NCBI GenBank assembly: GCA_014728035.1
Contig: WJMJ01000022.1
Span: 32,001 to 96,000, forward strand
Reading direction: 5' to 3'
Origin: Promethearchaeota archaeon
GTDB lineage: Archaea; Asgardarchaeota; Thorarchaeia; Thorarchaeales; Thorarchaeaceae
Length of the DNA stretch: 64,000 nucleotides
Notes under the pieces: model-generated
What the model saw: only the letters and a program-made list of their open reading frames with translations
Told to the model about the DNA's origin: nothing
Database searches by the model: none
Translations under genes and position numbers: made by a program
Part shown: in pieces, positions 25,820 to 27,526 of the stretch
Layout: each line of letters begins with the position of its first letter
Numbering within the stretch: the stretch's first letter is position 1

Positions 25820-26004
25820 GGGAAATAACTCTCCACAACAGCTTTCCAACCGTCATATCAGTTCCATATTGAGATATTCGGCATCCCAGAAGTATTAAAT
25901 GCGTTTTTTCCCTAAAATAGGGTGTGTGGTTCCGGAGAGAAACCTCGAAACTGATTGTGTGCCATAATCATTGACTGCATTGTACACCGGTACCTGCTTG
26001 TGGA

Positions 26005-26991
26005 GTGGAGAAATTGGATCAGATGAAAGGCGCAGTTAATTCAACAGGCGCTCCAGAAAGTGAAAGTGCCGAGACCCTAACATGTCCAGAGTGTGGATCA
26101 ACAGCTGTTGTAGAAGATACTACTCGAGGAGAGCGAGCATGTGAGAATTGTGGACTAGTTCTGTCAGACCATAGGATTGATACTGGTGCTGAATGGCGCG
26201 CATTCAGTGCTGAAGAGTCCGAGTCACGTAGTCGGGTGGGAGCCCCCATGCGGTATACAGTACATGATAAAGGACTTTCTACCGTTATTGATTGGAGAGA
26301 TAGAGACACCTCTGGAAAGAAACTTAGTCCAACACGAAGATCACAGATCTATCGTCTCAGAAAATGGCAGATTAGATCTCGAGTACATAGTTCTATTGAT
26401 CGTAATCTGGCTCAGGCTATGTCTGAGCTTGAACGTTTGGCATCTCAACTTGGCATCCCAAAACCAATTCGTGAACAATCTGCTTTATTGTATAGAAAAG
26501 CAGTTCAGAAGAATCTTGTCCGAGGACGCTCTATCGAGGCGATGGTTGCTGCAACACTATATGCTGCATGTCGAATCAGACAGAAACCACGTCCCCTTGA
26601 TGAAGTAGCTGACGCATCCAGAATTGATAGGAAGAAATTAGGACAGTGTTATCGTCTTCTTCTTCGAAGTCTTAAAGTCAAAATCCCTCTCTCGAATCCT
26701 GTAGATTATATTTCTCGATTTACTTCCCAGTTGGAACTATCTAGTTCCGTACAATTACGAACAATTGAAATCCTACAACGGAGTCGGGACATTGGTCTGA
26801 CAATCGGCCGGGACCCATTAGGTCTCGCAGCTGCAGCTATCTATGTTGCTTCTATTATGCTCGATGAACGGAGAACTCAACGTGAGATTGCAGAAGTCGC
26901 TAGAGTTACTGAAGTCACTGTAAGGAATCGCTACAAAGAAATTGTTAAGCGCCTCGACATTAATAGTATGGGACTTCCTAGTTCACACTAA
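26005..26991 (+). CDS. tfb: Transcription initiation factor IIB (most canonical copy)
   Basis: CPECG..CENCG Zn ribbon; EWRAF; HDKGLST; RLRKWQ; GRSIE; TQREIA..VTEVTVRNRY. Confidence 0.97.
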   Translation: MEKLDQMKGAVNSTGAPESESAETLTCPECGSTAVVEDTTRGERACENCGLVLSDHRIDTGAEWRAFSAEESESRSRVGAPMRYTVHDKGLSTVIDWRDRDTSGKKLSPTRRSQIYRLRKWQIRSRVHSSIDRNLAQAMSELERLASQLGIPKPIREQSALLYRKAVQKNLVRGRSIEAMVAATLYAACRIRQKPRPLDEVADASRIDRKKLGQCYRLLLRSLKVKIPLSNPVDYISRFTSQLELSSSVQLRTIEILQRSRDIGLTIGRDPLGLAAAAIYVASIMLDERRTQREIAEVARVTEVTVRNRYKEIVKRLDINSMGLPSSH

Positions 26992-27051: not shown

Positions 27052-27390
27052 TCATCTTCTGCCACCTTTGAATCCCCAGTCAATTGCAATTTGCTCTTCA
27101 GGGAATCCCAGTTTGCCAAGTACTTTGCCAATTGTACCTCGATGATCACCTTGAAGTTCAATATGGCCATGTTTGGCTGCTCCGCCACATGCAAGTTTGG
27201 ACTTGAGCTTAGAAGCGAGGTCGCTAAGGTCTATATTCTTATCAAAACCTTCAACGACTGTATACATTCTGCCCCATTTTCGGCGTTCGACAGTTACCGT
27301 AATTCGGGCCTCTTCTTGTGCGATTGTTTCGCAGACACAAAGGTCTACTGGCAATCCGCAATTTGGACATATTCCGCCTTCGTCTGACAG
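27052..27390 (-). CDS. Translation initiation factor aIF1 (SUI1); probable CUG start
   Basis: ICPNCGLPVDLCVC; LKSKLACGG; IELQGDH; in-frame TGA at 27394-27396 with no ATG/GTG/TTG before the conserved CPNC motif. Confidence 0.93.
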   Translation of the reverse strand: MSDEGGICPNCGLPVDLCVCETIAQEEARITVTVERRKWGRMYTVVEGFDKNIDLSDLASKLKSKLACGGAAKHGHIELQGDHRGTIGKVLGKLGFPEEQIAIDWGFKGGRR

Positions 27391-27526
27391 ATTTCACTTA
27401 CTCCTGATATTTTCTATTAGCTAAAGCTGTAATCTGTATTGTAATTATATCTTTAATAAGTTCCGTCTTGGTATATCCGTTCCATTTGAAAAGAGTAAAG
27501 AATGACTATGCAAGGAAGCACTTTCC

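Follow-up and report, generated by a model that had tools for sequence, protein, structure and literature searches.

The gene encoding aIF1 (SUI1) in the Thorarchaeota genome G000 very probably initiates at a CTG codon, CTG 27390 of the window (the whole 64,000-nucleotide stretch of DNA analysed here), given that its reading frame contains no canonical start codon up to the zinc knuckle, that a Shine-Dalgarno (SD) sequence precedes the CTG at the usual spacing and that GTG or CTG occupies this position family-wide. The codon is presumably read as methionine by the initiator tRNA. The best explanation, to which we give about an even chance of being right, is that an SD-led CUG start would be coupled to negative feedback of aIF1 on its own mRNA. 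The elements of the locus are:

27052–27390, minus strand: aIF1 (SUI1) coding sequence, from the open frame and a Pfam SUI1 match; 112 codons from CTG 27390.
27054–27052, minus strand: stop codon TGA of the aIF1 open frame.
27390–27388, minus strand: probable aIF1 start codon CTG, aligned with the GTG start of 60 relatives.
27396–27394, minus strand: in-frame TGA closing the aIF1 frame two codons 5' of the CTG, from reading of the sequence.
27405–27401, minus strand: Shine-Dalgarno sequence AGGAG of aIF1, part of a conserved AGGAGTA, 10 nt before the CTG.
27354–27352, minus strand: TTG chosen by automatic annotation, inside the CxxC...CxC knuckle and evidently not the real aIF1 start.
27419–27428, minus strand: dyad AGCTTTAGCT in the aIF1 leader, from the leader alignment, near the expected transcription start.
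27451–27462, minus strand: putative TATA/BRE region AACTTATTAAAG of aIF1, located by the leader alignment.

Read on the minus strand from 27396, the frame runs TGA AAT CTG TCA GAC GAA GGC GGA ATA TGT CCA AAT TGC GGA TTG, and ATG, GTG and TTG are all absent between the in-frame TGA and the first cysteine of the knuckle ICPNCGLPVDLCVC. Beyond this TGA, the frame contains further stops and no canonical start, and on both grounds we rejected an upstream start combined with read-through of TGA 27396. The first canonical codon to appear is TTG 27354, between cysteines two and three, which agrees with the first-pass annotation, where this TTG had been placed within the knuckle; on re-reading, the TGA, CTG 27390, TTG 27354 and the knuckle were all found at the positions given there. 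The knuckle, of the form CxxC...CxC, is complete only if translation begins 5' of TTG 27354, and its four cysteines are invariant in an alignment of 16 sequences. With CTG 27390 as the start and the stop at 27054–27052, the product is 112 residues long and matches Pfam SUI1 (PF01253) with an E value of 2.5e-18 and 66.8 bits against a cut-off of 25.5. It is the one SUI1 match in the 4.33-Mb assembly, which makes aIF1 single-copy in this genome, and an aIF1 match was obtained in 41 of 41 relatives and in 81 of 86 family genomes. The GGAG of the SD sequence is located at 27404–27401 on the minus strand, and its 10-nt spacer to the CTG falls within the genome-wide peak of GGAG-to-start spacers (8–11 nt). 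The suggestion that the DNA came from an Asgard-like archaeon was borne out, the nearest named relatives being 'Candidatus Thorarchaeota' MAGs with 79–85% protein identity.

We compared the aIF1 loci of 79 species from 15 genera belonging to the same family as G000. The codon aligned with CTG 27390 is GTG in 60 species, CTG in 18 and ATT in one, the last at a rearranged N-terminus, so that GTG or CTG is present in 78 of the 79. None of these species has a conserved ATG at the position, the opposite of the all-AUG pattern among close relatives that the first-pass annotation had raised as a counter-case. The CTG-type species belong to genera g1, g5, g7, g10, g12, g13 and g14, and all 18 retain CTG itself, never a synonymous leucine codon; in an internal codon sample of this genome, CTG makes up about 9% of leucine codons. 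In 15 loci from six genera, CTG is the sole possible start, with no canonical codon between the stop and the first cysteine. TGA-AAT-CTG recurs in the sister species G001, and a canonical start is lacking in 13 more loci of five other genera as well. Downstream, S-D-E-G-G-I is kept as protein through synonymous changes (TCA/TCC/TCG/AGT/AGC, GAC/GAT, GGN and ATA/ATT/ATC). Upstream, the codon directly 5' of the start is unconserved in the family, with a stop frequently one to three codons away, and at least 80% of 78 family sequences have AGGAGTA ahead of the start. These family data strongly support the earlier claim that aIF1 starts at CTG 27390 rather than at TTG 27354.

The history of the codon was followed on a tree of 24 family species, built from aIF1, a radical-SAM-like protein and TFB (887 columns), in which the CTG-type genera branch deeply and do not form a clade. 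This tree requires a minimum of five start-codon changes (four between GTG and CTG, one to ATT and none to ATG), although its backbone is weakly supported and no more than one or two changes are forced when the well-supported branches are taken by themselves, so that independent GTG/CTG switches may number as few as one or two.

The family alignment also weighs on the other ways in which this gene could be read. Gene callers choose TTG 27354 because it is the first canonical start codon in frame. As the true start it would give a protein without half of the zinc knuckle, losing two of the four invariant cysteines; no SD sequence lies ahead of it, and the aligned position in relatives is TTG, CTT, CTC, TTA or CTA, as expected of an ordinary leucine codon, all of which makes this start extremely improbable. 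Another near-cognate codon 3' of the CTG, the isoleucine codon ATA 27372–27370 before the first cysteine, is in frame ahead of the knuckle, but we consider it highly unlikely, since the aligned codon varies freely in relatives (ATA, ATT, ATC and even GTT), it stands about 28 nt from the SD sequence against an invariant 8–11 nt for the NTG position, and the intervening S-D-E-G-G is conserved as protein. The out-of-frame ATG of ATA-TGT (27371–27369) was discarded as well, the isoleucine codon being ATT or ATC in many relatives.

An artefact or a decayed gene has to be considered for a MAG with an estimated contamination of 8.5%: base 27390 could be an error of sequencing or assembly, translation could begin at the out-of-frame GTG at 27397–27395 and shift frame, or the gene could be a pseudogene. 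The probability of this reading is nevertheless very slight, given that 18 species, assembled independently, share the CTG context and that the gene is the sole copy, intact and highly conserved. An assembly error in particular is very unlikely because the identical TGA-AAT-CTG of G001 was assembled independently. Initiation at GTG 27397 followed by a frameshift was rejected, as this codon is only 3 nt from the SD sequence and is absent from the other CTG-type relatives.

Start-codon usage in G000 was tallied at SD-anchored 5' ends of long open reading frames (ORFs) and compared with internal positions. The tally comprised 409 ATG, 140 TTG, 61 GTG and 25 CTG, corresponding to enrichments over internal positions of 13-fold, 5.8-fold, 3.3-fold and 1.5-fold, respectively. 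After background subtraction, about 69% of starts are ATG, 21% TTG, 8% GTG and about 1.6% CTG, with TTG and GTG together accounting for about 30%. CTG is enriched relative to other CTN codons at these ORF ends (Fisher p = 3e-4). When the genome was scanned strictly for forced non-canonical starts, CTG was not statistically enriched (3 of 143 against 0.017 overall), most ORFs in that scan being noise. Three long genes of G000 with a forced CTG start all look real:

G000:C25:201004–201450 (L272:204–650), minus strand: low-molecular-weight phosphotyrosine phosphatase (LMW-PTP) or ArsC-like gene, forced CTG with a stop directly 5'.
G000:C44:24225–25142 (L273:204–1121), minus strand: MTHFR-family gene, forced CTG in the arrangement GGAG, 9 nt, CTG.
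G000:C25, start at 240043, minus strand: FAD/NAD-type oxidoreductase LKADVTVIGAGPAG, forced CTG after GAGGAG, with a GxGxxG motif from residue 9.

The LMW-PTP matches its Pfam domain from residue 4 onwards, and its catalytic cysteine lies 5' of the next canonical start; in relatives, the aligned start codon is ATG (eight), TTG (two) or GTG (one). For the MTHFR-family gene, the domain begins at residue 5, the next canonical start lies 49 codons 3', and GGAG followed by 8–9 nt and CTG recurs in seven Thorarchaeota genera. In another genus, a RIO-like kinase gene (L263) carries a CTG two codons past a stop. Judged from these gene sequences, CUG is a rare but real start codon in the Thorarchaeota lineage. 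Its use in other genes strengthens the case for a CTG start of aIF1 and weakens the idea that CUG is unique to aIF1. The initiator tRNA of G000 is ordinary (A1:U72, GGG/CCC anticodon stem, anticodon CAU, intron-containing), and a tRNA search of the genome found neither a special initiator nor a tRNA with a CAG anticodon. No special decoding is needed or indicated for CUG. The initiator tRNA(CAU) gene, at about G000:C9:91716–91866, has its intron in the T-arm region, and ARAGORN does not find it when the intron option is off.

Control genes scored in genomes of the same family showed how far non-ATG starts extend. The divergent radical-SAM-like neighbour of aIF1 starts with ATG in 23 of 24 cases and a KH-domain gene in 28 of 28; starts of the MtrH-like and NMD3-like genes are a mixture of ATG, GTG and TTG, and those of the RIO-like kinase gene are mostly TTG. 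TFB, the convergent neighbour of aIF1 (window positions 26005–26991), has TTG or GTG after GGAGG in essentially all relatives and never ATG; in the window itself, TTG 26014 (8 nt after GGAG 26002–26005) is its most likely start, rather than the GTG 26005 given by the ORF finder. aIF1A was dropped as a neutral control gene, since its own start is a conserved TTG, found in about 25 of 26 family species (TGG AGG ATT ATT TTG). In G000, this small-subunit partner of aIF1 is encoded at G000:C25:164420–164734 (L241:1435–1749), with its TTG after GGAGG (TGG AGG TAT ATT TTG). Other factors of G000 start with ATG (aIF2-alpha, aIF2-beta and aIF6) or GTG (aIF2-gamma). aIF1 is thus not alone in having a non-ATG start throughout the family, because TFB and aIF1A keep TTG or GTG across the family and the RIO-like kinase mostly uses TTG. 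Nor is CTG a dedicated sensor codon, given its use as a start in genes for unrelated enzymes.

The first-pass annotation had proposed aligning aIF1 5' regions across Asgard genomes, and this alignment revealed forced non-canonical starts in five families: the Thorarchaeota family, f4, f8, f9 and f16. In f9, the largest family sampled, 17 of 22 aIF1 loci lack a canonical start. The start in these loci lies five codons ahead of the first cysteine and is ATT or, in one genus, ATC, with a stop one to three codons 5' of it, giving a product (M)KDDDICPICSFPKELCIC preceded by the SD-like box AAGGTTGTGA (L209, L215–L228, L232, L234 and L236). Families f8 and f16 have ATA after AGGAGG, and f4 has CTG. 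The start is GTG in families f2, f10 and f18 and in most of f5, whereas about ten further Asgard families have ATG. Most of the 80 named archaeal loci sampled from outside Thorarchaeota also start with ATG. Five Methanomethylicia-type aIF1 genes have a conserved TTG start (L051, L053, L057, L061 and L066). In single non-Asgard MAGs, a forced CTG start was seen once, in Hadarchaeota (L109), and ATC or ATA apparently serves in two others (L067 and L082).

Further upstream, an alignment of 78 family leaders places AACTTATTAAAG with a family-wide box ACTTATATG about 60 nt 5' of the aIF1 start. About 30 nt 5' of the start, relatives carry AGC-N-GCT dyads (AGCA-N3-TGCT and similar) aligned with AGCTTTAGCT, and this leader dyad could be a candidate operator. 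RNAalifold detected no conserved structure in the 78 family leaders, and the single-sequence fold of the aIF1 leader is not unusually stable (z = 0.27).

These data show or strongly support a leadered, SD-dependent aIF1 mRNA, with the 30S positioned by AGGAG 27405–27401 and the ordinary initiator Met-tRNA (CAU) starting at CUG 27390 with a first-position mismatch, so that the product is (M)SDEGGICPNCGLP... with an intact zinc knuckle. If aIF1 also regulates its own synthesis, the CUG, as a poor start, would hold aIF1 output low. The factor would in addition destabilise near-cognate initiation complexes, so that initiation on the aIF1 mRNA would fall as aIF1 rises and rise as aIF1 falls, and the outcome would be negative feedback of the type found with infC (AUU) or eIF1 (AUG in poor context). 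In Saccharolobus solfataricus, another archaeon studied with another codon than here, aIF1 rejects or destabilises initiation complexes on non-AUG (AUU) codons in vitro (PMC4705826). IF3 is autoregulated through the AUU start of infC (Butler et al. 1987, as cited in PMC4705826), and eIF1 through the poor context of its AUG (Ivanov et al. 2010, as cited in PMC6237735 and PMC4705826).

Alternatively, the CTG start could be real and feedback absent. Thorarchaeota would then tolerate a broader start set (ATG, TTG, GTG and a little CTG), aIF1 would be one of many weak-codon genes of low output, and drift between GTG and CTG would be nearly neutral. We regard this as quite possible, if rather short of probable. 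An explanation by low expression or drift stays very much alive because weak starts are frequent and conserved and CTG is used by unrelated enzymes: the non-ATG share of SD-anchored starts in G000 (about 30%), the TTG or GTG kept family-wide in TFB, aIF1A and RIO-like genes, the CTG starts of LMW-PTP, MTHFR and FAD oxidoreductase in G000 and of the RIO-like gene in another genus, and the several GTG/CTG interchanges on the tree are all in keeping with it. It leaves unexplained, however, the forced ATT, ATC, ATA and CTG starts of aIF1 in four further Asgard families, and the absence of ATG from 79 species when a single mutation would turn either GTG or CTG into ATG. The comparisons favour a poor start having been selected for in aIF1 specifically, because ATG is absent from the family and other Asgard families have repeatedly been forced onto rarer near-cognates. 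The feedback loop put forward in the first-pass annotation is consistent with these data, and the ATG starts of the radical-SAM-like neighbour and the KH-domain gene in the same genomes also speak for it. The conserved non-ATG starts of TFB and aIF1A, the CTG starts of unrelated genes, the prevalence of ATG among non-Asgard aIF1 genes and the leader lacking a conserved structure speak against it.

The arrangement resembles bacterial infC, which encodes IF3, in that the gene for a fidelity factor has a near-cognate start after a normal SD sequence and the weak codon is conserved across relatives. It differs in that the folds of IF3 and aIF1 are unrelated and the codon is CUG (GUG in sister genera) instead of AUU; repression by the factor, shown for IF3, is here a prediction for aIF1, and CUG also serves other genes. 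Eukaryotic eIF1 and aIF1 are orthologous members of Pfam SUI1, and in both cases the mRNA that encodes the factor has a suboptimal site of initiation, whereas eukaryotes rely on scanning, Kozak context and AUG, and initiation on aIF1 here would be SD-directed and non-AUG. The aIF1 proteins of Pyrococcus abyssi and S. solfataricus likewise combine an N-terminal zinc knuckle with a SUI1 domain, although neither a non-AUG start nor autoregulation is described for those genes in the literature searched. Compared with ordinary GUG and UUG starts, the aIF1 start is equally SD-led, with the initiator tRNA and a first-base mismatch, and GTG itself stands at the position in 60 of 79 family members, but CUG lies outside the usual gene-caller set and makes up about 1–2% or less of starts here.

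A full-text literature search of incomplete coverage returned no paper on aIF1 genes with non-AUG starts, on autoregulation of aIF1 or on archaeal CUG starts. The present analysis adds the CUG starts of other Thorarchaeota genes and the conserved TTG and GTG starts of aIF1A and TFB, which call for caution on how specific the weak start is to aIF1. In these genomes, standard gene callers truncate aIF1, cutting its zinc knuckle, and miss CUG-initiated genes such as those for LMW-PTP, MTHFR and FAD oxidoreductase; annotation of Asgard genomes should therefore consider near-cognate starts. More broadly, we tentatively suggest, at somewhat less than an even chance, an Asgard homeostat of start-codon stringency, in which aIF1 would be made from CUG or GUG in Thorarchaeota, from AUU or AUC in the large Loki-type family and from AUA elsewhere, and Thorarchaeota aIF1A from a conserved UUG, with the levels of the factors feeding back on their own initiation. 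Autoregulation of eIF1 would then have an archaeal precursor, and bacterial infC a counterpart that arose by convergence. Should the feedback be real, start-codon fidelity would be controlled in each of the three domains via a poor start site of the fidelity factor itself, and since the Asgard and eukaryote versions would involve the same protein family, this would bear on the origin of start-site stringency control in eukaryotes.
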